This document shows positions 27,431-46,304 of a stretch of 64,000 nucleotides of DNA, in pieces. This DNA is from Chitinivibrionales bacterium (GTDB lineage Bacteria > Fibrobacterota > Chitinivibrionia > Chitinivibrionales > WJKA01). The notes beneath the pieces were generated by a model. It did no database searches, had not been told where the DNA came from, and saw only the letters and a program-made list of their open reading frames with translations. The stretch is taken from assembly GCA_038247415.1 (NCBI GenBank), contig JBBRUX010000005.1, forward strand, positions 59,504 to 123,503. Reading direction: 5' to 3'. A program made the translations under genes and the position numbers. The first letter of the stretch is position 1; each line of letters opens with the position of its first letter.

Positions 27431-27530
27431 GGGGCTAGGCCCTGCGCAATCAAAGACTGTGAACCCCGCCAGGCCTGGAAGGGAGCAACGGTAAGCAGAC
27501 ACCAGGTGTGCCGCAGGTAAACTTAGCCCT
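27431..27530 (+). ncRNA. ffs: Signal recognition particle RNA (small bacterial 4.5S type)
   Basis: GAACCCCGCCAGGCCTGGAAGGGAGCAACGGTAAGC domain-IV core; terminal stem GGGCTA/TAGCCC followed by a T-tract; upstream of dnaX. Confidence 0.95.
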
Positions 27531-27632
27531 TTTTTTTGAGTAAATACCGAGAATATCTGATCTTATTACGGCAGGTTGGCAATTGCCTCATTCCAGCGCC
27601 TTGGCACTGTTTTTGGCCGGAAACTTCCTTAT

Positions 27633-34852: not shown

Positions 34853-35545
34853 TTATTTATTCTTTTTAGCAATCATGAACAAATTTGCATGGAACATAAC
34901 CTGTGCTTTAGCGAGCTTGTAATTAAACGGAAAAAATATTTTAAGCAGTGCACTCCCCCGCTTGACCAATTGATCTAAAAACCATCCTGGAATAAAATCG
35001 AAATGGGCATAAAAATGTTTCTTGTGTATAACGGCAAAATCCGAATCACTCAACATTGTCTCAAAGCGATAGGGTGTTACAATAAAGGCATGGGTATAAT
35101 CTATCCAGAAATCCATGCCCCATGAGTTAAAATCGGGAAAAAGAAAAACCGCTACACCCCCAGGCTTTAAAACCCGATGAATTTCTTTTAGTAAATCATA
35201 TGCTTTTTCGTGATTGGGCATATGCTCAAAAACATGACTTAACACAATACAATCGGCACTCTTATCATCTTGGATTATAGGCGGAACAAAGCCCAAATAC
35301 CCTTCGGCTCCTAATTTTTTTGCATTTTCTAAAATCAATTCGTTATTATCGAAGCACACATAGCTATGCCCATTTTCAAGACACCACCGTGTAAAATCTC
35401 CCTGCCCCGGGCCAACTTCAACAATGCGACTCGCTTTGGGAATTACCTTTGCAATAGCTCCATTTACTCTTGTTCGCAGGATAGAATTGGTCAATCGCCC
35501 TAAAGCCGTAGGCTTTTTGGTCATAAAAAAATCATATTTGCTCAT
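34853..35545 (-). CDS. Class I SAM-dependent methyltransferase
   Basis: IVEVGPGQG, SHVFEH, HRVLKPGG, DYTH. Confidence 0.85.
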   Translation of the reverse strand: MSKYDFFMTKKPTALGRLTNSILRTRVNGAIAKVIPKASRIVEVGPGQGDFTRWCLENGHSYVCFDNNELILENAKKLGAEGYLGFVPPIIQDDKSADCIVLSHVFEHMPNHEKAYDLLKEIHRVLKPGGVAVFLFPDFNSWGMDFWIDYTHAFIVTPYRFETMLSDSDFAVIHKKHFYAHFDFIPGWFLDQLVKRGSALLKIFFPFNYKLAKAQVMFHANLFMIAKKNK

Positions 35546-35992: not shown

Positions 35993-37054
35993 TTATATGC
36001 TTTTCCTCCTCGCATGAGGCGAATCCCCATACTGATTATACGCAATTGTTCTCCCTACCGACATAATGCGCCCACCGATACAGCTACTGCATTGAGTTGC
36101 GGTTTCATCGAGGCATGGTTTTCCATCGTATAATTGATAATTAGTACGTACATCGGTAGGAGTTACTTGCGGCATAATGACATTTGCACCATAGCGCAAA
36201 CCATCTTCACGTCCATTGGGATTCATTGCTTGCAATGCGGTAGTTGCCGCAATATTGACATCTTCTAAATAAAGTCTGGTTACAGCAATCATGTTTAAGG
36301 CAAGCTGATAAATGTAATCTTTTTGACTATCGATAAGCGGGCCATAATGGCTCATTGGTGTGGCATGATGCACAATGAATGGTCCCATTCCAATCATGTC
36401 AATATCGAGTATTTTAAAAAAGAGGATATCATCAGCAAGCATCTCAATAGTCTGATGAGGTAAACCAATCATGACGCCGGTTCCCACCTGAAAACCGATT
36501 TTTTTAAGCGTATTAAGACATTCGATGCGTTCTGCAAGCAGTTGCGAGGGCGGATGAATAGATTCAAAGAGAGTCGGGTTTGTTGTCTCTATACGTAACA
36601 AATAGCGATGTGCGCCCGCATCAAAAAAACGTTGATACGATTCCTGCGATTGCTCGCCCACGCATACGGTTATCCCAAGACCGCCGGGAAGTTTTTCTGA
36701 CACCGTGGAGCTTTTAATTACCATTATGACACTCTCAACAAAATTTATAAATGCACTATCTTTTCGTTCGCCCGATTGCAAAACGAGCGAGCCATAGCCT
36801 AGTTCTGCACACACTTTTGCAGCACGTACTATCTCTTCAAGAGTTAAGGTATACCGGCTCTGAACCTCGGTATTCTTGCCAATTCCACAATACAGGCAAT
36901 CGTTGACACATACATTGCTAAATTCTATAAGACCCCTCATGCTTACTGCTTTTCCGCAGTGGGCAAGCACCATTTCTTCTGCTTTTTTTCGCATATCCTC
37001 GATTGCACTAGGATTTTGCAAACTCAGCATCTGTATGATCTCGTGTCGAGTCAT
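35993..37054 (-). CDS. hydE: [FeFe]-hydrogenase H-cluster radical SAM maturase HydE
   Basis: RGLIEFSNVCVNDCLYC, YLLRIET, GANVIMP, YQLYDGK, C-terminal CX7CX2C. Confidence 0.95.
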   Translation of the reverse strand: MTRHEIIQMLSLQNPSAIEDMRKKAEEMVLAHCGKAVSMRGLIEFSNVCVNDCLYCGIGKNTEVQSRYTLTLEEIVRAAKVCAELGYGSLVLQSGERKDSAFINFVESVIMVIKSSTVSEKLPGGLGITVCVGEQSQESYQRFFDAGAHRYLLRIETTNPTLFESIHPPSQLLAERIECLNTLKKIGFQVGTGVMIGLPHQTIEMLADDILFFKILDIDMIGMGPFIVHHATPMSHYGPLIDSQKDYIYQLALNMIAVTRLYLEDVNIAATTALQAMNPNGREDGLRYGANVIMPQVTPTDVRTNYQLYDGKPCLDETATQCSSCIGGRIMSVGRTIAYNQYGDSPHARRKSI

Positions 37055-37146
37055 GTGTTTATCCTTATTCTTAAAAACGTTCCCCTTTGCAGAGAAAACT
37101 CGGAACTCATTTCATCGTTTAACAAGTGTGCAAAAGATACTCTCTA

Positions 37147-38646
37147 CTAGAAATACAAATCCCGTGCGCCTAAACGTGTTTCCTCGTAATTCTTGAAAAA
37201 AGCATCGTACACCTTAGGATTTTTTTCTTTAACCTGGGCAATTTCCATGGCAAGAATCTTTTCGCCAATTTCTTTTGTTTTGGGTGATGCAAAGTCATCG
37301 AGCCATTCCCGAAAGGTAAGGACTGCATTGAGTTTGCAAAATTTGCCTTCTTGGCCAGAACGCAGGAGATCCATAATACATTGGCCTGTTCTGCCACAGC
37401 GGTATCCTGCAGTGCAAAACGATGTAATATAACCGAGTGTTGCCAACTCGTAAACAACATCATCGAGACTTCGGGTATCACCTAAAGTAAACTGTTGTTT
37501 TTCAACATGCTGGTCGGTACCACGCGGACTTTCGGCATATGCACCCACGCCAATTTTAGAAGATGCATCTGTTTGGGTAATACCCAAAGGAAGTAAGCTC
37601 GTGCGCATTTCAGCGCATTCCCGAGCTGTCAGAATCATACCGGTATAAGGCACTGCAAGCCGAATTACGGTTATTGCTTTACGAAATTCTGCATCGGAAA
37701 CAAGCCACGGCGAATTGCTTGCAAAGGGGGTGCTCTCTGCGGGTTCCATGCGCGGAAATGAAATAGTATGCGGCCCGATGCCTAAAACCGATTCAAGCTC
37801 AATAGCATGGGACAGAAGCCCCAAAACTTCAAAACGCCAATTATACAAGCCGAATAACGCACCAATGCCCACATCATCGATACCAGCTTCCATAGCTCTA
37901 TGCATTGCATATAAACGCCATTGATAATTACCTTTAATAGTATTTGCTGGGTGCACTTTGGAATATGTTGCATGATGATAGGTTTCTTGAAATACCTGAA
38001 AGGTTCCAAGCCCGGCTGTATTAAGCTTTTTAAGGTCGGCAACAGAGAGAGGCGCTGCATTCACATTGACACGTCGTATTTGTCCAAAGTTCTTGCCCAC
38101 GGGGACCTTTACATCGTAGATGGCTTTAATTGTATCAACCATGTAGTCGATATCAGAATCGGGGTGTTCCCCATACACAACAATAAGCCTCTTATGCCCC
38201 GTTACACCTGCAAGTGATTCAACTTCTGCCTTTACCTGATCCAGAGATAATCGAGAACGATCGACAGCTTTATTCTCGTGCCGCAAACCACAATAGGCAC
38301 AATTATTAACGCAGTCGTTACTCAAATAAAGCGGAGCAAAGGTTACGATACGATTATCATACACTTTTTTCTTGATTTGGCCGGCAGCGACTTCCATTTC
38401 TGCAATAAGATCGGGGTCGGTAACTGCCATAAGGGTTGCAGTTTCTTCGTGAGACAGCGTTGCAATAGTCAATGACTTTGCAATAATTTCTCGTACGCGT
38501 ACAGCAGAAGTATCGTGATGTGCTACCAAAAGCGCTTCAAGTTTGGCATCATCAATAAAATCGATACCATTTTTAAGATACTTGTCAATCTCATCCTGCT
38601 TGATTTTAAGATTCTTATACTCTGCAAACCCATTTTCTTGTGCCAT
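37147..38646 (-). CDS. hydG: [FeFe]-hydrogenase H-cluster radical SAM maturase HydG
   Basis: FAPLYLSNDCVNNCAYC, FQETYH, GPHTISFPR, C-terminal CX5CX19C, RDLYF end. Confidence 0.96.
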   Translation of the reverse strand: MAQENGFAEYKNLKIKQDEIDKYLKNGIDFIDDAKLEALLVAHHDTSAVRVREIIAKSLTIATLSHEETATLMAVTDPDLIAEMEVAAGQIKKKVYDNRIVTFAPLYLSNDCVNNCAYCGLRHENKAVDRSRLSLDQVKAEVESLAGVTGHKRLIVVYGEHPDSDIDYMVDTIKAIYDVKVPVGKNFGQIRRVNVNAAPLSVADLKKLNTAGLGTFQVFQETYHHATYSKVHPANTIKGNYQWRLYAMHRAMEAGIDDVGIGALFGLYNWRFEVLGLLSHAIELESVLGIGPHTISFPRMEPAESTPFASNSPWLVSDAEFRKAITVIRLAVPYTGMILTARECAEMRTSLLPLGITQTDASSKIGVGAYAESPRGTDQHVEKQQFTLGDTRSLDDVVYELATLGYITSFCTAGYRCGRTGQCIMDLLRSGQEGKFCKLNAVLTFREWLDDFASPKTKEIGEKILAMEIAQVKEKNPKVYDAFFKNYEETRLGARDLYF

Positions 38647-38690
38647 ACATTCTCCTTGTTATTAAAGCTTAATTTTTAGAAATTTCTTGA

Positions 38691-39926
38691 TTATTTTTTA
38701 GTATATGCATATAAAGCAGCTGGAAAAGGTGATAATACACGCTCCACAACGCCTTGCAATGCCGAAATGCAAATTCCATAATTGGTAAGCGGAACATTTT
38801 GTTCAGATGCTGCCATCTGCCTATTCATGGTTTCCCTACGGGTCAACATGCACGATCCGCACCCGACCACAATTGCATAGGAAGTAAGGTCATCGGGAAA
38901 ATCTCGCCCACATGCAACATCAATAGTAAGATCGCATCCTGTATACTGTCGCAGCCAGCGGGGAATTTTAACCCGACCGATATCATCTTCTGCAGCATGA
39001 TGCGAGCAGGCCTCTGCAATGAGAACTTTTGCCCCATCCTTAAGAGATTTTATTGCCCGTGCCCCTTTGGCAAAAAGTACCAGATCACCTTTCGCGCGTG
39101 CAAATAAAATCGAAAAAGTTGTTGCAGGAATTGTAGACGGTGTATCTGCAACCATTTTGAGCACAACTTGCGAATCACATACAACCAGATCGGGCGGTGT
39201 GGTAAGCCTTGACAACATCGATGAATACTCGCGCTCCTTAACAACCATAACTGCGGCATCATTATCGAGAATATCGCGAATCGATTGAACTTGCGGCAGT
39301 ATCAAACGACCCTTGGGAGCCTGCAAATCTATCGGTACAATAAAAATTGCAAGTCCTCCCGGCCGCACAAGATCGCCCAATAAGGGCGGGGTCAAAAGAA
39401 AATCTGGTGGCAAAGCAGCGTGTACTGTAGCAATAAACTTCTGCCGATACTCCACCTGAGCATCCTGTTTTATTGACGAAACACACACTACCCCATTCAC
39501 TTTTTTGGTAAGCCTGGCAACAAAAGGCTCTGAGGGCATAGCTTCATCTATTTTATTGACTACTGCAACACACGGCAATTTTCTTTTTAAAGCTTCGTTA
39601 ACGATATTCTCTTCAAATTCTCCATACTTTTCTGCTTCGAGAATAAGAATTACAACATCTGCACGGTTAAAAAGTGCATGAGTTTTTTTAAGCCTTTTAT
39701 CTGCTAGTTGCGTAGCATCATCAATACCAGCGCTGTCAAGTAATACTACCGGTCCCAAAGGCAGAAGCTCCAGAACTTTTTCTACAACATCGGTGGTTGT
39801 TCCAGGAATAGGAGAGGTTACTGCAATATCCTGACCACACATCATGTTGAGAAATGAGGATTTTCCAACATTTGTACGGCCAAATATGCCGATTTGCAAA
39901 CGATTAGATTTTGGCGTTGCTTCCAT
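38691..39926 (-). CDS. hydF: [FeFe]-hydrogenase maturation GTPase HydF
   Basis: GRTNVGKSS, GTTTD, NKID, APKGRLILPQVQ, EACSHH...CGSC, TNYG. Confidence 0.96.
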   Translation of the reverse strand: MEATPKSNRLQIGIFGRTNVGKSSFLNMMCGQDIAVTSPIPGTTTDVVEKVLELLPLGPVVLLDSAGIDDATQLADKRLKKTHALFNRADVVILILEAEKYGEFEENIVNEALKRKLPCVAVVNKIDEAMPSEPFVARLTKKVNGVVCVSSIKQDAQVEYRQKFIATVHAALPPDFLLTPPLLGDLVRPGGLAIFIVPIDLQAPKGRLILPQVQSIRDILDNDAAVMVVKEREYSSMLSRLTTPPDLVVCDSQVVLKMVADTPSTIPATTFSILFARAKGDLVLFAKGARAIKSLKDGAKVLIAEACSHHAAEDDIGRVKIPRWLRQYTGCDLTIDVACGRDFPDDLTSYAIVVGCGSCMLTRRETMNRQMAASEQNVPLTNYGICISALQGVVERVLSPFPAALYAYTKK

Positions 39927-39927
39927 A

Positions 39928-41298
39928 TTAAACGTGTCCCAAGCTCATAATTTTTTGTGGGGATAAGGCCTTTTCAACAACACTATCACCAAGCTGTGCC
40001 TTTAGATACTTTACAAAAACTTTTTCCGATGAATTTTTAAACGACACGACAAGGTCCTGAGCCTTTTCATATCCAATAACCGAAACAAGAGCAGTAATCA
40101 TGGCGGTGCTTGACGTAGAATGTGCGTTGCAGCGATCTTCATCAACCTCACACTGGTCGATATGCGCTGCGAAAATTGAACACGCTTTGCATAAAAGCGA
40201 AATAGCCTTTAGCAAGGCATCCGAAAGTAGTGGCAAAAATTCATTAATCTGTAAAGTTCCCCTGCTTGCGCACTCAGCTACGACACTGCATTCGCTCCTA
40301 ACTCGCATACTGCATTGAATTATGCTCTCGAGTATAACGGGATTCACTTTACCGGGCATAATAGAAGACCCTGCTGCCACGGCAGGAAGTCTAATTTCTC
40401 CAAGCATATGAAGAAGACGTATGTCGTCTGCAATTTTGATAAGATTTGCTGCACATGCACCAAGAATGCCGGCAACTTCTACAAAACTATCTGCATTTGC
40501 CGTTGCATCAACAAGATTCTCTGCACGAGTGATGCCATATCCCGTCAACTCACGCAAAACATCGGTAACCGTAAAGATATAATCGCGAGGAGCAGTTAAA
40601 CCGGTACCAATGGCTGTTCCACCAAGGTTTACAACACGCAAACGCTCTTCACATTTAAAGGTTCGCCATCTGTCGCGTGCAAGAGCCTCTGCAAATGAAG
40701 AAAATTGGGCACCCATGGTCATAGGCACAGCATCCATGCATTCTGTTCGACCCATTATGATAACGTGTGCCCACGCACTTTCTTTTTTCTGAAAAGATCC
40801 CTGTAAAAGCGCGCACGCAGAACTCAACGCTCTCAAGAGGCCAATGGCACCAACTTTAATTGCAGTGGGAAAAACATCATTAGTTGACTGATGCAAATTA
40901 ACAGCTTCAATAGGATGGAGATATTCATACTCGCCTGCGTTTTTTCCTAATTTTTGTAAAGCAGTATTGGCAATTACTTCATTTACCATCATATTAACAG
41001 ATGTTCCAGCACCACCACAAAGGGCATCTAAACAAAATGCATCACCATTTTTTCCAGCTAAAAGGTCATCGCATGCAGCAATTATAGCAGCAGATTGAGT
41101 ATCATTAAGGTATCCTAGTCTTTGATTAGTAATGCAGCATGCTTTTTTAACAATTACAAGCGATTTTACAAGCGATTTTGAAAGCCTCGCATAATCAAAG
41201 GGGAAATTTTCGAATGCACGTAGCGTATGAATTCCATACAGAGCATCTTGCGGAAGTGATCTCTCCCCTAACAGGTCGTGTTCGATGCGCATATTCAT
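39928..41298 (-). CDS. aspA: Aspartate ammonia-lyase family protein (hydrogenase-maturation associated)
   Basis: RIEHDLLG, QSTNDVFPT, GGTAIGTG, GSSIMPGKVNP fumarase/aspartase signature. Confidence 0.88.
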   Translation of the reverse strand: MNMRIEHDLLGERSLPQDALYGIHTLRAFENFPFDYARLSKSLVKSLVIVKKACCITNQRLGYLNDTQSAAIIAACDDLLAGKNGDAFCLDALCGGAGTSVNMMVNEVIANTALQKLGKNAGEYEYLHPIEAVNLHQSTNDVFPTAIKVGAIGLLRALSSACALLQGSFQKKESAWAHVIIMGRTECMDAVPMTMGAQFSSFAEALARDRWRTFKCEERLRVVNLGGTAIGTGLTAPRDYIFTVTDVLRELTGYGITRAENLVDATANADSFVEVAGILGACAANLIKIADDIRLLHMLGEIRLPAVAAGSSIMPGKVNPVILESIIQCSMRVRSECSVVAECASRGTLQINEFLPLLSDALLKAISLLCKACSIFAAHIDQCEVDEDRCNAHSTSSTAMITALVSVIGYEKAQDLVVSFKNSSEKVFVKYLKAQLGDSVVEKALSPQKIMSLGHV

Positions 41299-41302
41299 AT
41301 CA

Positions 41303-41569
41303 TTACTTTCCGTTGGGTTTTGCCAAAGCCGATTTCACCGAAACACCTGGAACCTGACCGAGTGATCCTGTTAATACCCCGAGGGCATCGGTAGTTGCAT
41401 CAACCACCAAAGTAATAACGCAACATTGACGAGATTGGTACGGTATGCCAGTGCGAGCTACAATGATGGTGCCATGTTCATGCAAAATAGCATTGACTTT
41501 TTCGGCGCTTTTTTCGCGGTTTTCAATAATAATACCAACAAAACCGAGCCGTTTTTCCAGAGTTTCCAT
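41303..41569 (-). CDS. TM1266 family iron-only hydrogenase system putative regulator
   Basis: RLGFVGIIIENRE...VNAILHEHG..IVARTGIPY...LTGSLGQVPGVSVKS; heads the hyd maturation operon. Confidence 0.9.
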   Translation of the reverse strand: METLEKRLGFVGIIIENREKSAEKVNAILHEHGTIIVARTGIPYQSRQCCVITLVVDATTDALGVLTGSLGQVPGVSVKSALAKPNGK

Positions 41570-41591
41570 GCTTGATACTTTCTATCTCTAC

Positions 41592-41634
41592 AAAAAAAAA
41601 TCCCGCTTCCTCTTCTGAAAAGAGAAAACGGGAT
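41592..41634 (-). terminator. Intrinsic terminator directly upstream of the TM1266-aspA-hydFGE operon
   Basis: Minus-strand AUCCCGUUUUCUCUU-UUCAG-AAGAGGAAGCGGGAU-U8: 15-bp stem with two G-U pairs valid only on this strand. Confidence 0.85.
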
Positions 41635-41732
41635 GCACTATTCATGTAAGCCACACCTGCTGGCTTTATAAACTAACGCATTCCCTTGATCTCAGATACA
41701 GATCCTCGTCGCAGGAAAACTGAAAAGAACAC
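41630..41732 (-). ncRNA. Candidate cis-regulatory leader RNA (attenuator/riboswitch-like), family not recognised
   Basis: Hand-derived mutually exclusive helices, including an antiterminator overlapping the terminator 5' arm; see findings. Confidence 0.45.
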
Positions 41733-41775
41733 AGAAGTGCCCAGAATAATCTGAAAACTTCTTAATTATACAATC

Positions 41776-43524
41776 CTACTTATACTCCGGTCTGGCTGTA
41801 TACGATGTATGCAGCAATTCATGAGATTTATGAGAAAGCGGATGTTCCAAGAACTCCTTATAGAGCAATTGAATTTCCGGATTCAAGTGAGAACAACGCT
41901 TAATGGAACGTTCGTCGTCGGTATAGATACCAGCAGTACGTTTACGACGGACAGTATCGTCGGCACCATAGGGCTGACCACCACCACCAACGCAACCACC
42001 ACGACAAGCCATTACTTCAATAAAATGGTAGGGTGAAGGCTTTCCTTCTGCAATTGCCTTGCGCACTTTATCAAGAACACTGGCAATATGAATCATTCCA
42101 TGAGCAACGGCAACATTAACTTTTGTACCTTCAACATCTACGGTTGCTTCTTTAACACCTTCAAGACCTCGGACATCAACAAAGTTGACATCCCCTAGTT
42201 CTTTTTTGGTTATAAGAGTATAAACAGTACGAAGCGCTGCCTCCATAACACCACCAGTAGCTCCAAAAATAGTGCCCGCACCGGTGTAATTACCAAGAAT
42301 TGAATCTACATTTTCTTCTGGTAAATTTGCAAAATCAATTCCAGCAGACTTGATCATACGAGAAAGTTCGCGAGTTGTAAGCGAAACATCGATATCCTTG
42401 TGACCAGAGCTAAACATTTCTTTACTACGCGCAATTTCGAACTTCTTTGCTGTGCATGGCATAATCGAAACCATGAAGATCTTGGCAGGATCGATGCCAA
42501 GCTTTTGAGCATAATATGTTTTCGACATTGCACCAAGCATTGATTGAGGCGATTTGGCTGTCGAAAAGTAAGGAATAAGATCGTGATAAAACTTTTCGAG
42601 ATAATCGACCCATGCAGGACAACAACTGGTAATCAGCGGAAGCGTTTCTGGGGCTTCTGTAAACCTCTTTACAAACTCAGACCCTTCTTCCATAATGGTA
42701 AGATCGGCTGCAAAGTTTGTATCGAACACTGCCTTAAAACCAAGTTGACGAAGGGCCGCATAGAGTTTACCGGTTTGAAGCGAGCCAGATTCAAATCCAA
42801 AAGATTCTCCAATAGCAACACGTACAGCCGGAGCAATTTGAACAATCGGGTACAGATCTGATTTTTGGAGAGCGTTCCAAACAACATGACATTCTGATTT
42901 TTCGTAGATAGCCCCTACTGGGCAATGTGCAGAGCATTGCCCGCACTGAATACAAGGGCTATTTGCAAGAGATACATCCCCTGCAGGTGCTATACGAGTA
43001 CCATCTCCGCGTCCAAGAAACTCAAGCGCCCAAACGCCTTGAAGATCTTGACACACTTTTGCACAACGCCCGCAACCGATACACTTTTCAGGGTGCAGAA
43101 CAAGACCTGACGAAGAAGTATCTTCGGGCAAATTTCGCAAACGTTGCGGGAACGGATTCTCACGGATACCAAAATCGGCGGCGATTGTTTGCAATTCGCA
43201 ATTTTGATTTCGTGGACAGGTAAGACACTCATTGGGGTGTGATGCGAGAATAAGTTCAATAACAGTTTTTCGCACTTCAATGATTTCGGTATCATGGGTA
43301 ATAATACTCATGCCTTCTTCAACCGGAGTTGAACATGCACGAAGCATTTTAGGCGAGCCTTCAACCTTGACAACACACACGCCACAGGCTGCCCATGCCT
43401 CTAAATCGGGATGATAGCACAGTGTAGGGATCTTGATTTGAACTTTTTTAGAAGCATCCAGGATGCTAGTTCCAGCAGGAACAGTTACCTGACGACCGTT
43501 TATCTTGAGACTAACTTCTTTCAT
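41776..43524 (-). CDS. hndD: [FeFe]-hydrogenase catalytic subunit (group A, HndD/HydA-like)
   Basis: H-cluster motifs TSCCPAW, MPCTAKKFE, EVMACRGGCVGGGGQP; N-terminal 2Fe-2S, HX3CX2CX5C and 2x4Fe-4S; AAGGAG SD before ATG 43524. Confidence 0.95.
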   Translation of the reverse strand: MKEVSLKINGRQVTVPAGTSILDASKKVQIKIPTLCYHPDLEAWAACGVCVVKVEGSPKMLRACSTPVEEGMSIITHDTEIIEVRKTVIELILASHPNECLTCPRNQNCELQTIAADFGIRENPFPQRLRNLPEDTSSSGLVLHPEKCIGCGRCAKVCQDLQGVWALEFLGRGDGTRIAPAGDVSLANSPCIQCGQCSAHCPVGAIYEKSECHVVWNALQKSDLYPIVQIAPAVRVAIGESFGFESGSLQTGKLYAALRQLGFKAVFDTNFAADLTIMEEGSEFVKRFTEAPETLPLITSCCPAWVDYLEKFYHDLIPYFSTAKSPQSMLGAMSKTYYAQKLGIDPAKIFMVSIMPCTAKKFEIARSKEMFSSGHKDIDVSLTTRELSRMIKSAGIDFANLPEENVDSILGNYTGAGTIFGATGGVMEAALRTVYTLITKKELGDVNFVDVRGLEGVKEATVDVEGTKVNVAVAHGMIHIASVLDKVRKAIAEGKPSPYHFIEVMACRGGCVGGGGQPYGADDTVRRKRTAGIYTDDERSIKRCSHLNPEIQLLYKEFLEHPLSHKSHELLHTSYTARPEYK

Positions 43525-43559
43525 TATCGACTCCTTATGCGGCATCACGCCTGATGGCT

Positions 43560-45347
43560 TTAGGATTTAATAACCGCGTCAAATTTACACACTTGAAAAC
43601 ACTCTCCGCATTTGATACACGCTTTAGAATCAATCAAATGTGGCTTACGCTTTTCTCCGCTAATTGCATTGACAGGACATTTTTTGGCACATGCTCCACA
43701 TCCAATACATTTATTGGTTAGTATTGAATACGCTAACAAGTGCGAGCACTTTTTAGCAGGGCATTTTTTATCGTTGATATGCGCCAAATATTCATCTTCA
43801 AAATAGGTCAATGTTGACATTACAGGATTTGGGGCAGTTTGTCCAAGTCCGCACAGCGATGCCCGTCTCATGGCTTGACCAATTTTGCGCATTGAGCGAA
43901 AATCGTCCTCAACACCCTGACCCTTGGTAATACGCTCTAGGATATTGAGCATCTGCCGTCCACCGTTACGACATGGGGCACATTTTCCGCACGATTCGTC
44001 GACAGTAAATTCGAGATAAAAGCGGGTAACATCAACCATACAGTCATCCTCGTCCATGACAATCATACCACCCGAACCCATGATAGAGCCAAGCTTTAGT
44101 AGATTTTCATAGTCGATTGGTGTGTCGAGATATTCGGCCTTAATAACCCCGCCCGAAGGCCCCCCCGTTTGAACAGCTTTAAATTTTTTGCCATGAGGAA
44201 TCCCGCCGCCAATATCATAGATAATTTCGCGAAGTGTGGTTCCCATGGGAACTTCGATAAGACCGGTGTTATTAATTTTACCGGTAAGCGCAAATACTTT
44301 TGTGCCTTTGCTTGTTTCGGTTCCGATTTTAGCAAACCAAGCACCACCCTTTTGAAGGATAAGCGGAATATTTGCTAATGTTTCAACGTTATTGATAACA
44401 GTGGGTTTGCCCCAAAGTCCCTTAACAGCAGGGAACGGGGGCCGAGGAACCGGCATACCACGTTTACCTTCGATACTTGCCAAAAGCGCAGTTTCTTCTC
44501 CGCACACAAATGCTCCAGCACCAAGACGAAGCTCAATATCGAATGAAAAATCGGTACCAAGAATGTTTTTACCCAAAAGTCCGAGTTCATGAGCTTGCTT
44601 AATAGCAACTTCAAGGCGATGGATAGCTAAGGGATATTCGGCACGAATGTAAACAAATCCCTGTTTTGCCCCAATGACTTTTCCAGCAATAGCCATTGCT
44701 TCAAGAACTGAATGTGGATCACCTTCGAGTGTAGAGCGATCCATGTATGCGCCAGGATCTCCTTCGTCCGCGTTACAAACGATAAATTTTTCGTCTGAAA
44801 CAACGTCCTTTGAGAAAATCCATTTTTTCCAGGTAGGAAAACCCGCACCACCACGACCACGAAGGCCTGATATTTTGAGCTCGTTGATAATGTCGTCGTT
44901 GCTCATGGTAGTAAGCGCTTTTTCGAGCGCAACATAACCATCGCGAGCAATATATTCGTTTACATTTTCGGGATCGATTACACCGCAGTTACGCAGCACA
45001 ATACGCACTTGTTTCTGATAAAAATCGAGATCATCGATTTTTACTCGTGCTTTACTTTCGGTATTACCGTAAACCAGCCGCTTTACCTGACGTCCTTTTA
45101 CAACATGTTCAGCAACGATCTCTTTGGCATCGTCTGGTGAAACACGTACGTAAAGCGTTTCGTCGGGGATAATTTTAACAACTGGTCCCTTTTCGCAAAA
45201 ACCGAAGCACCCAGTCTTGACAACCTGTGCATCGCCAGCAACGCCCTGTGCTTCGAGTTCCTTGATAATACCTTTGTACACCGCATCGCTACGAGTACTT
45301 TCGCATCCGGTACCACCACAAACAAGAATATACTGTTTATAAGCCAT
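43560..45347 (-). CDS. hndC: NuoF-like FMN/NAD(P)-binding hydrogenase subunit (HndC/HydB)
   Basis: GLRGRGGAGFPT, CNADEGDPGA, GAGAFVCGEET, ESCGKCAPCR, C-terminal 2x4Fe-4S. Confidence 0.95.
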   Translation of the reverse strand: MAYKQYILVCGGTGCESTRSDAVYKGIIKELEAQGVAGDAQVVKTGCFGFCEKGPVVKIIPDETLYVRVSPDDAKEIVAEHVVKGRQVKRLVYGNTESKARVKIDDLDFYQKQVRIVLRNCGVIDPENVNEYIARDGYVALEKALTTMSNDDIINELKISGLRGRGGAGFPTWKKWIFSKDVVSDEKFIVCNADEGDPGAYMDRSTLEGDPHSVLEAMAIAGKVIGAKQGFVYIRAEYPLAIHRLEVAIKQAHELGLLGKNILGTDFSFDIELRLGAGAFVCGEETALLASIEGKRGMPVPRPPFPAVKGLWGKPTVINNVETLANIPLILQKGGAWFAKIGTETSKGTKVFALTGKINNTGLIEVPMGTTLREIIYDIGGGIPHGKKFKAVQTGGPSGGVIKAEYLDTPIDYENLLKLGSIMGSGGMIVMDEDDCMVDVTRFYLEFTVDESCGKCAPCRNGGRQMLNILERITKGQGVEDDFRSMRKIGQAMRRASLCGLGQTAPNPVMSTLTYFEDEYLAHINDKKCPAKKCSHLLAYSILTNKCIGCGACAKKCPVNAISGEKRKPHLIDSKACIKCGECFQVCKFDAVIKS

Positions 45348-45360
45348 GAAACCCCTCCGC

Positions 45361-45750
45361 TTACCGGACCAAGTCGGTCGCTGGTTTATCGAAAATATGG
45401 TCGTTTATGAGCTTTTTGTTAATGATATGTTCGGTGATAATTGCCCGAGCAACTTCTGGAGTTACGTTTCCGTAAATAATAGAAGGAATACCCGGAGTTT
45501 GAACCTCCACCGTTGGTTCGCTATAGCAAAGTCCCATACAACCCGTTTGAGTAACGGTTACTGTTGAGATTTTTTGCTTTGCAATTTCATCGAGGCAAGC
45601 ATCGAAAGCAAGCTTTGCGCCAGCTGCAATGCCACATGTCCCCATACCAATGATAATCTGTGAATCTTTACCATCTGATTCACGAGGAACCATTGCCTGC
45701 TTCCGCTCGTCGCGGAGTGTCTTAAGATCGGATAGAGTCAATTTTGCCAT
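45361..45750 (-). CDS. hndB: Thioredoxin-like [2Fe-2S] ferredoxin subunit (HndB)
   Basis: GMGTCGIAAGA, TGCMGLCYSEP. Confidence 0.9.
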   Translation of the reverse strand: MAKLTLSDLKTLRDERKQAMVPRESDGKDSQIIIGMGTCGIAAGAKLAFDACLDEIAKQKISTVTVTQTGCMGLCYSEPTVEVQTPGIPSIIYGNVTPEVARAIITEHIINKKLINDHIFDKPATDLVR

Positions 45751-45761
45751 ACACGTTCCTT

Positions 45762-46304
45762 TTAGAGAAGCGTTTCTTCTTCTAGCATCTGCACATACTC
45801 ACGAATTGCAAGTAACGATGCAGCATCATTTATTGTTCCTAACTCGGCAAGAATCTCGTTTCGACTAATAGAATAGCTTTTATCGCCGCGAGTCCGGTTA
45901 AATTTCAGTTCGTAAGTGCCACCAAAGGTGAGCAATGTCAGAACTGTACCAGCTACATCTCCCAAAGGTGGTGCATCGGGATGTGATGCATTGAAAATGC
46001 ATTTGACCGATGTTCCTACGCCTTCTTTAGAACTTATTTCGAATTCCCCCTGTGTTGCCTCTACGGCCTGTTTAACAAAAGGAAGACCAAATCCGGTTGA
46101 CCTTAATGGATGTTTGCGAGGGTCTGTCGAAAAAGGATCGACAGCCTTTGCAAGTACCATGGGACTCATTCCACAACCATTATCAGATATAAAGAGCGAT
46201 ATTTTATTATCATTTTCGCAAAAATCGACTATTACCAGACTCGATTGTGCCTCGAGCGAATTCTGCGACAAGTCGAGGATATAGTCGACAAGCGCTGCAT
46301 GCAT
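45762..46304 (-). CDS. Stand-alone HATPase_c (histidine kinase-like ATPase) in the hydrogenase operon
   Basis: ILDLSQNSLEA, DNGCGM, DPFST, GFGLPF, PPLGD; no HisKA domain. Confidence 0.88.
   Translation of the reverse strand: MHAALVDYILDLSQNSLEAQSSLVIVDFCENDNKISLFISDNGCGMSPMVLAKAVDPFSTDPRKHPLRSTGFGLPFVKQAVEATQGEFEISSKEGVGTSVKCIFNASHPDAPPLGDVAGTVLTLLTFGGTYELKFNRTRGDKSYSISRNEILAELGTINDAASLLAIREYVQMLEEETLL

Follow-up and report, generated by a model that had tools for sequence, protein, structure and literature searches.

In the stretch of DNA analysed here (64,000 nucleotides (nt) from a Chitinivibrionales bacterium of the Fibrobacterota, contig JBBRUX010000005.1; 'the window', with position 1 its first letter), a conserved leader RNA lies between hydA, the gene for the catalytic subunit of an [FeFe]-hydrogenase, and the hydrogenase maturase operon TM1266-aspA-hydF-hydG-hydE. 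The leader falls outside any Rfam 15 family and is apparently undescribed in the literature that we searched. It is most likely a conditional transcription attenuator that sets when the maturases are made. Besides the TM1266-like gene, which comes first behind the switch, it most likely gates the aspA-like gene, hydF, hydG and the hydE-like gene (35993–41298). An earlier look at the letters of this DNA (the sequence-only reading) had proposed an unrecognised ligand- or protein-responsive switch in the spacer. On sequence grounds that proposal is supported by a conserved hairpin, terminators behind 61 of 66 copies, complementarity of both hairpin strands to the terminator and the lack of an Rfam match. 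All features given below are on the minus strand unless marked (+).

The window's leader occupies a 206-nt spacer that separates hydA from the TM1266 gene. An intrinsic terminator lies at 41591–41634, with its stem at 41634–41600 and a U-tract at 41599–41591. The stem has 16 pairs, 6 of them G–C, a loop of 3 and then T9; this is the G+C-containing stem-loop with an immediate U-tract of a Rho-independent terminator, and termination is predicted. It is the longest of 16 terminator-like sites between 35000 and 48000, the remaining sites having 5–8 pairs. From the T-run to the TM1266 ATG are 21 nt, in agreement with the strong terminator shortly before the start codon that the sequence-only reading had described. 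The TATAAT hexamer that it had listed is also in the sequence, at 41765–41770, and is a possible −10 box; in the spacer, scoring of this strand gave no promoter-like site with two hexamers, and no −35 box matching the TATAAT was found there. A start at the TATAAT and read-through from hydA are both possible. The 221-nt leader has a more stable fold than 200 of 200 dinucleotide shuffles (z = −3.34).

Upstream of relatives' TM1266 genes we read a consensus of UCCUG(C/A)GG, YNA, a short hairpin and CUGAANNC(A/G)AGGG, followed by a terminator. The hairpin is about 45 nt in size. Its copy in the window, a putative sensor hairpin, was located by covariance-model match at 41673–41723 (core 41683–41715) and scored 40.8 bits with model R1 and 40.4 bits with model R2, the window copy being included in both models. 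In a leave-one-out nhmmer search, a profile built from 94 other copies found 41720–41680 at E 3.4e-7 in the 64-kb window, and the second-best match reached only E 1.5.

The minimum-energy fold of the isolated window motif is the consensus fold. Helix P1 joins 41715–41713 to 41685–41683 (C–G, C–G, U·G). Pair counts in alignments A4 and A5 place above it two tandem non-canonical pairs (G41712·A41686 and C41711·A41687), helix P1a (G41710–C41688 and A41709–U41689), an internal loop (41708–41706/41693–41690) and helix P2 (41705–41702 with 41697–41694). Two elements of the sequence-only reading gave way to this structure. The helix that it had called P1 (41732–41723 with 41687–41678) has its 5′ strand outside the conserved columns, and its GAUCU/AGAUC hairpin is a local alternative where the family has P1a and P2 instead. 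The minimum-energy fold of the leader adds a hairpin, GAAGU...ACUUC (41733–41761), which is placed between TATAAT and motif and falls outside the conserved columns.

In the column numbering of A4, P1 (C9–G67, C10–G66, U11·G65) is nearly invariant and without covariation. The tandem step comprises G12·A64 and N13·N63, the latter being C·A in 50 copies, A·A in 7, A·G in 7 and C·G in 1; G63 accompanies A13 in 7 of 8 cases. In P1a, G14–C62 is GC in 57 copies and GU in 9, and pair 15–61 is GC in 39, GU in 9, AU in 4, UA in 1 and otherwise in 11, the aligning model having lacked that pair. The window's rare A41709 stands opposite U41689, and A4 copies with A in that column have U opposite in 4 of 4. 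Next comes a conserved 3 × 4 internal loop (Y16 N17 A18/G57 A58 N59 N60), and P2 beyond it covaries strongly. About 20 nucleotides are nearly invariant and are concentrated in the internal loops. Readings of these loops as a k-turn or a loop E did not fit by eye, and pairing of a conserved AUGAAA with the 5′ flank, likewise judged by eye, was inconsistent among copies.

Across 91 distinct copies, 91.5% of cells pair, compared with 79.9% in shuffles, and 150 cells are changed on both sides, compared with 51 ± 11 (0 of 500 shuffles as high). Sliding the helix partners lowers pairing to 72% or less. The motif is therefore a conserved structured element with covariation through P2 and P1a, P1 being invariant and hence neutral. 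The upstream regions of TM1266 and hydG homologues, which had been named earlier as the place to look for covariation, hold a conserved motif in which two helices covary. Some features of these data weigh against the reading as a structured switch. Alignments A4 and A5 were fitted to models and structure, and related genomes are not independent. The register of P1 (CCU/GGG or UCCU/AGGG, the latter used in model R1) is undecidable because its columns do not vary. The complementarity of the 5′ strand to the terminator, described below, is weak in the Fibrobacter-like family f5.

The motif goes with TM1266. TM1266 homologues are present in 38 of 81 genomes of the window's order; the 6 further genomes of the window's family have none. 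Searching relatives at the DNA level matched only the coding flanks; when the DNA was read directly, the motif stood upstream of TM1266 in 25 of 29 other loci of the order. From 25 copies we built a first covariance model and applied it to 80 TM1266 loci of named genomes, which by record title belong to Fibrobacterota, Verrucomicrobiota, Lentisphaerota, Kiritimatiellia, Planctomycetota, Omnitrophota, Dehalococcoidia, 'Hakubella', Moduliflexus and Bacteroidota. Fifty-three of these loci, from at least seven phyla, match at E ≤ 0.005, all on the TM1266 strand and 46–297 nt upstream of the TM1266 alignment start. Variants occur at 17 further loci (8 weak model matches and 9 seen only by eye). At 7 loci TM1266 abuts another open reading frame (ORF) and no motif is nearby; the rest are 2 with little or no upstream DNA and 1 odd locus, L108, which looks rearranged or permuted, with CUGACCCAAGGG ahead of CCUGCGGCUAGGGG. 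Beyond the phyla surveyed for the motif, Thermotoga maritima carries TM1266.

Within the window's order, 31 of 81 genomes hold a single copy (E < 1e-4), and all 31 of these matches lie 100–450 nt upstream of TM1266. Of eight weaker matches, the six inspected were inside ORFs (four) or intergenic (two, both in genus g24); the four inside ORFs were dismissed as chance, together with L190. In an Omnitrophota sample, exactly one match was found in 33 of 151 genomes. Thirty of these loci were inspected: TM1266 lies 60–450 nt downstream in 28, hydG lies downstream in genome G320, and L219, without the invariant CCUG and AAGGG, was set aside as dubious. The weak matches in G235, G261 and G324 adjoin TM1266 by coordinates. 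One locus, L021, has about 700 nt of head-to-tail repeats of about 44 nt between the hydA terminator and the motif's promoter region, about 200–900 nt past the hydA stop.

In 61 of 66 copies a terminator stands between motif and gene, the criterion being a hairpin of −8 kcal/mol or lower with a T-rich tail. The two strands that form the hairpin base can each pair with the 5′ half of their own copy's terminator, an arrangement with the anatomy of an attenuator. The 5′ strand, CCUGCGG with the bases after it, finds its complement in a CCGCAGG-type element, which is located in the loop or the upper 5′ arm of the copy's own terminator. It pairs more stably with its own target than with those of other copies (−15.98 versus −14.61 kcal/mol; 1 in 10,000 permutations, 52 de-replicated copies), and the pairing is long in copies from the PVC group and Omnitrophota (−17 to −27 kcal/mol). 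The window's GCAGG element sits instead in the loop of a separate hairpin, AAGCCA/UGGCUU at 41666–41648, supported by sequence and folding, where GCAGG (41660–41656) is complementary to CCUGC (41715–41711). The sequence-only reading had singled out this hairpin and its possible loop pairing; the hairpin is real and the complementarity recurs in relatives. The 3′ strand, AAGGG with the bases after it, has its complement at the base of the terminator 5′ arm, through a constant GGGA/UCCC whose extension varies by copy, and again favours its own target (−8.80 versus −7.66 kcal/mol; 1 in 10,000 permutations, 47 copies).

In the window, folding yields an antiterminator (41630–41685) that pairs 41685–41674 (GGGAAUGCGUUA) with 41640–41630 (UAGUGCAUCCC). 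It extends the hairpin at 41666–41648 and uses up both the P1 3′ strand and the terminator base. The same pairing had been put forward from the letters alone, and it is the best fold before the terminator 3′ arm exists, that is, the minimum-energy fold of a transcript cut at 41617 (−31.1 kcal/mol). Pairing of this type recurs in relatives with different sequences. For the full window leader, hairpin plus terminator reaches −43.1 kcal/mol versus −40.6 kcal/mol for the enforced antiterminator. The consensus hairpin alone is weak (window copy −5.2 kcal/mol, median −9.2 kcal/mol). By the permutations, the energetics of the window and a variant that holds a likely ribosome-binding site, the hairpin and the expression platform are mutually exclusive. 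A protein site on the hairpin would likewise overlap one of two exclusive structures ahead of the terminator, as the strands of the hairpin base are shared with the antiterminator.

The ribosome-site variant occurs where the motif adjoins hydG. In two genomes of genus g24 the motif stands directly upstream of a HydG-type gene, and TM1266-aspA lies elsewhere without a motif. Genomes G080, G036 and G320 have the motif ahead of hydG and encode TM1266 elsewhere. Among Lentisphaerae/Kiritimatiellia-type genomes with a leaderless TM1266, the motif is directly upstream of hydG in 3 of 5. At loci L222 and L223, the P1 3′ strand (AAGGA) lies 8 nt before the hydG ATG, at the position of a ribosome-binding site; a −10-like box is just upstream of the motif and no terminator was noted.

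These pairings suggest how the leader would work. In the nascent RNA the antiterminator would form first, and polymerase would read into TM1266-aspA-hydF-hydG-hydE. An effector that clamped the weak hairpin would withhold both base strands, the terminator would form and the operon would be off; the hairpin would thus act as an anti-antiterminator, an OFF switch. In the ribosome-site variants, the closed hairpin would keep the ribosome-binding site hidden. Whichever platform is used, expression appears to be off when the hairpin is closed: in L222 and L223 the 3′ strand sits where the hydG ribosome-binding site would be. The element would set the level of the maturases relative to hydA, or from its own promoter where no hydA lies upstream, as in L222 and L223.

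The terminator might instead be constitutively leaky, fixing a low maturase:hydrogenase ratio with no switch at all; the hairpin would then have some other purpose, for example in processing or stabilising the hydA 3′ end, or as a small RNA set free at the terminator. In the window's order, 18 of 29 loci do encode HydA directly upstream of the motif and on its strand; in Omnitrophota, 26 of 30 do. Products of the structural genes would plausibly be needed in larger amounts than the maturases, and motif plus terminator would give a discrete RNA of about 130 nt. We consider a fixed ratio unlikely nonetheless. The motif stays before TM1266, and has −10-like boxes of its own, at loci that lack hydA or have it at a distance (L018, L020, L023, L025, L026, L029, L036 and L214); complementarity of both hairpin strands to the copy's own terminator would be purposeless in a fixed terminator; and in two genomes the hairpin holds the likely hydG ribosome-binding site with no terminator noted.

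Translation offers another route to conditional termination. Most Fibrobacterota copies (for example L047:2421–2440, L061, L064 and L016) have, by eye, a conserved start codon, AUG or GUG, with AAA or AGA behind it, 5–8 nt after AAGGGGGAG; the short ORFs that begin there stop within the terminator or close ahead of it and could encode a leader peptide. Under ribosome-mediated attenuation, the hairpin 3′ strand would serve as the ribosome-binding site of this ORF, translation into the terminator would prevent termination, and the hairpin would only gate translation. This arrangement seems very improbable as an account of the family: the ORF is absent outside Fibrobacterota, the window's AUG lies directly behind GGGA and is too close, and the peptides have no common length or sequence. 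The hairpin would still require a sensor.

If the leader is a conditional attenuator, the candidate effectors are the protein encoded first behind it and a small molecule or ion. The TM1266-like gene (41303–41569, 88 amino acids (aa)) belongs to PF21699 (E 2.6e-29, 101.4 bits against a cut-off of 27), and phmmer matches its product to PDB entry 2nzc at E 2.9e-14. A predicted model with a mean local confidence (pLDDT) of 90.3 shares the fold of 2nzc (template-modelling (TM) score 0.87–0.94), and the next structural matches are C-terminal domains of NikR (TM score about 0.8, E 3e-6). On this model, TM1266 is predicted to be a stand-alone sensor domain of the NikR C-terminal/ACT-like type, without an extra or DNA-binding domain. 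The window's own genome has a second, weak PF21699 match outside the window (G000:C25:28876–29097 (+), 27.4 bits, at the cut-off), and similar weak paralogues are found in several relatives.

With few exceptions, the gene that the switch precedes is TM1266. It is present in every motif genome, 33 of 33 in the window's order and 33 of 33 in Omnitrophota (one match dubious). Conversely, in genomes with HydG and without TM1266, the motif was found at E ≤ 0.001 in 0 of 22 of the order and 0 of 24 Omnitrophota; one weaker match among such genomes is in G030 (E 0.009). An invariant P1 is what would be expected for sequence-specific recognition by TM1266. The effector may then be the TM1266 protein itself, binding the hairpin perhaps only when loaded with a ligand of its own, and H-cluster biosynthesis would be under feedback control comparable to that by PyrR. 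TM1266-dependent attenuation at this leader could well be correct, and we hold it tentatively.

A number of observations weigh against a role for TM1266. Its co-occurrence with the motif arises largely because the motif is nearly always TM1266's own leader; the two are separated in only 3 of about 65 unbiased motif genomes, and the related genomes compared are not independent. In the 46 TM1266-less genomes, about 1.6 hydG-linked motifs would be expected against 0 seen, a difference that is not significant. The conserved Arg and Lys of TM1266 are kept in lineages without an adjacent motif, and comparison of TM1266 residues between motif-bearing and motif-less lineages revealed no difference. 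In the other 2 of the 5 Lentisphaerae/Kiritimatiellia-type genomes with a leaderless TM1266, no motif was found anywhere in the genome, which implies that some function of TM1266 is independent of the RNA. No RNA-binding activity of this fold family was met in the literature and structure entries surveyed. Conservation of internal-loop nucleotides across phyla is equally typical of small-molecule aptamers, and a protein-free riboswitch for a small molecule or ion fits the RNA data equally well.

Such a riboswitch would be a new class, its hairpin a protein-free aptamer for a ligand related to the H-cluster or to redox state, whose bound, closed form terminates transcription or hides the ribosome-binding site. 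Candidate ligands are Fe2+, cysteine, tyrosine, S-adenosylmethionine (SAM) or 5′-deoxyadenosine, ammonium or aspartate, cyanide and NADH. The near-invariant nucleotides of the internal loops, about 20 in at least seven phyla, with covarying helices flanking them, are in keeping with an aptamer, and with about 45 nt the motif is of a size found among small riboswitches. Both terminators and ribosome-binding sites serve as platforms, as they do in validated riboswitch classes; the motif can adjoin hydG directly with TM1266 encoded elsewhere, and TM1266 residues do not track its presence. Counting against a riboswitch, the motif was found in 0 of 46 genomes with HydG but without TM1266 (E ≤ 0.001), and P1 is invariant instead of covarying. 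The first regulated gene is usually a putative regulator, not an enzyme or transporter, and with a single copy per genome and a single regulon the surrounding genes do not point to a ligand. A new riboswitch class is accordingly possible, if somewhat doubtful. Its more specific form, a class for an H-cluster-assembly ligand derived from HydG or HydE, such as cyanide or an iron-carbonyl-cyanide-cysteine species, is improbable; TM1266 as founder of a new class of NikR-like, ligand-loaded, RNA-binding attenuation proteins is about three times as likely as that. Between TM1266 and a small-molecule ligand as effector, we have a slight preference for TM1266.

Some leaders depart from the consensus. 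A Pontiella/Kiritimatiellales variant lies 60–150 nt upstream of TM1266 at L080, L092, L098, L099 and L105. It has UCCUG(C/A)G, a different (rebuilt) G+C-rich hairpin and then GCAAGGGAUC, without a terminator; by eye, a 5′ extension is complementary to a GGAGGAG ribosome-binding site. The models do not detect this variant. At L112 and L118 (Bacteroidota) and at L084, L087, L106 and L113, UUAGGG, UCAGGG or CCUACGG replaces the consensus.

A search of the whole window against Rfam 15 at gathering thresholds returned a signal recognition particle (SRP) RNA only and nothing in the leader, bearing out the earlier statement that the element belongs to no known class. When 41400–41950 was searched at E ≤ 10, all 6 matches were far below gathering, and 20 relatives' loci searched at E ≤ 1 yielded only two chance matches to microRNAs. 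We found no description of the leader RNA in the full-text literature, subscription journals and supplements lying outside its scope, and none in the available portions of PMC3543383, PMC7266159, PMC9481103 and PMC11736057. TM1266 appears in the full-text literature only as an annotation label.

The closest known system in logic is the pyr operon of Bacillus subtilis. There, PyrR with its small ligand binds an anti-antiterminator hairpin in the leader and the terminator forms; pyrR is the first gene behind the first attenuator, and its binding site is Rfam family RF00515. Here too a putative regulator gene comes first behind an attenuator in which a conserved small hairpin would serve as anti-antiterminator. 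The two sites are not homologous: the best Rfam score for the PyrR site was only 19.6 bits against a gathering threshold of 54 (E 3.1). PyrR has a phosphoribosyltransferase fold, unlike the NikR-C/ACT-like TM1266, for which RNA binding is a candidate activity suggested by context and phyletic pattern, and we see one attenuator per operon. NikR, for its part, has an N-terminal DNA-binding domain and acts on DNA. Its C-terminal domain, a metal-binding, tetramer-forming sensor, is the best structural match to TM1266 after 2nzc, but TM1266, at 88 aa, corresponds to the sensor-like domain alone, with 12–20% identity.

Among riboswitches, the leader resembles preQ1-I and HMP-PP (the thiS motif, named in PMC7266159) in its terminator-coupled OFF action, a short aptamer of about 35–50 nt, a weak P1 with a 3′ strand that has a second role in the antiterminator or as ribosome-binding site, and the use of transcriptional and translational platforms. 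It differs from both in fold and conserved nucleotides, in the invariance of P1 and in the complementarity of its 5′ strand, too, to the terminator.

The structure of TM1266 has been solved since 2006 (2nzc), with no function assigned. The leader, conserved from Fibrobacterota to Omnitrophota, Planctomycetota, Verrucomicrobiota, Chloroflexota and Bacteroidota and placed between an enzyme gene and its maturases, offers a direct experimental handle: an RNA of about 130 nt and a protein of 88 residues can be tested together. Either outcome, a riboswitch that answers to a hydrogenase-related signal or a NikR-like sensor domain that binds RNA, would be new if true. A riboswitch for an H-cluster ligand would, if true, be the first RNA sensor of an organometallic cofactor pathway. 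A possible use is in controlling heterologous hydrogenase maturation.

In the surrounding locus, Pfam assigns a histidine-kinase-like ATPase (HATPase_c, 180 aa) at 45762–46304, a thioredoxin-like [2Fe-2S] protein at 45361–45750 and a NuoF-like subunit at 43560–45347; upstream of hydA, this layout (43560–46304) is that of a bifurcating-type HydABC operon with a kinase-like insert. HydA itself (41776–43548; Fe_hyd_lg_C, E 9.2e-94, and Fe_hyd_SSU) is encoded by the last structural gene, directly upstream of the leader. Behind the TM1266-like gene come an aspA-like lyase (Lyase_1, 39928–41298), hydF (38691–39926), hydG (radical SAM and BATS domains, 37147–38646) and a hydE-like radical SAM gene (35993–37054), and these Pfam assignments agree with the operon TM1266-aspA-hydF-hydG-hydE as first read. 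In the available part of PMC11736057, AspA in the hyd operon is described as an ammonium source for the dithiomethylamine ligand, and the words 'regulator', 'TM1266' and 'riboswitch' do not occur there. Among sequencing runs containing the locus were sediment metagenome DNA only and no RNA run. A class-I methyltransferase gene (34853–35545, 230 aa) lies directly behind the hydE-like gene on the same strand. At 27433–27531 (+) is a bacterial small SRP RNA (58.6 bits), the sole Rfam gathering-level match in the window.

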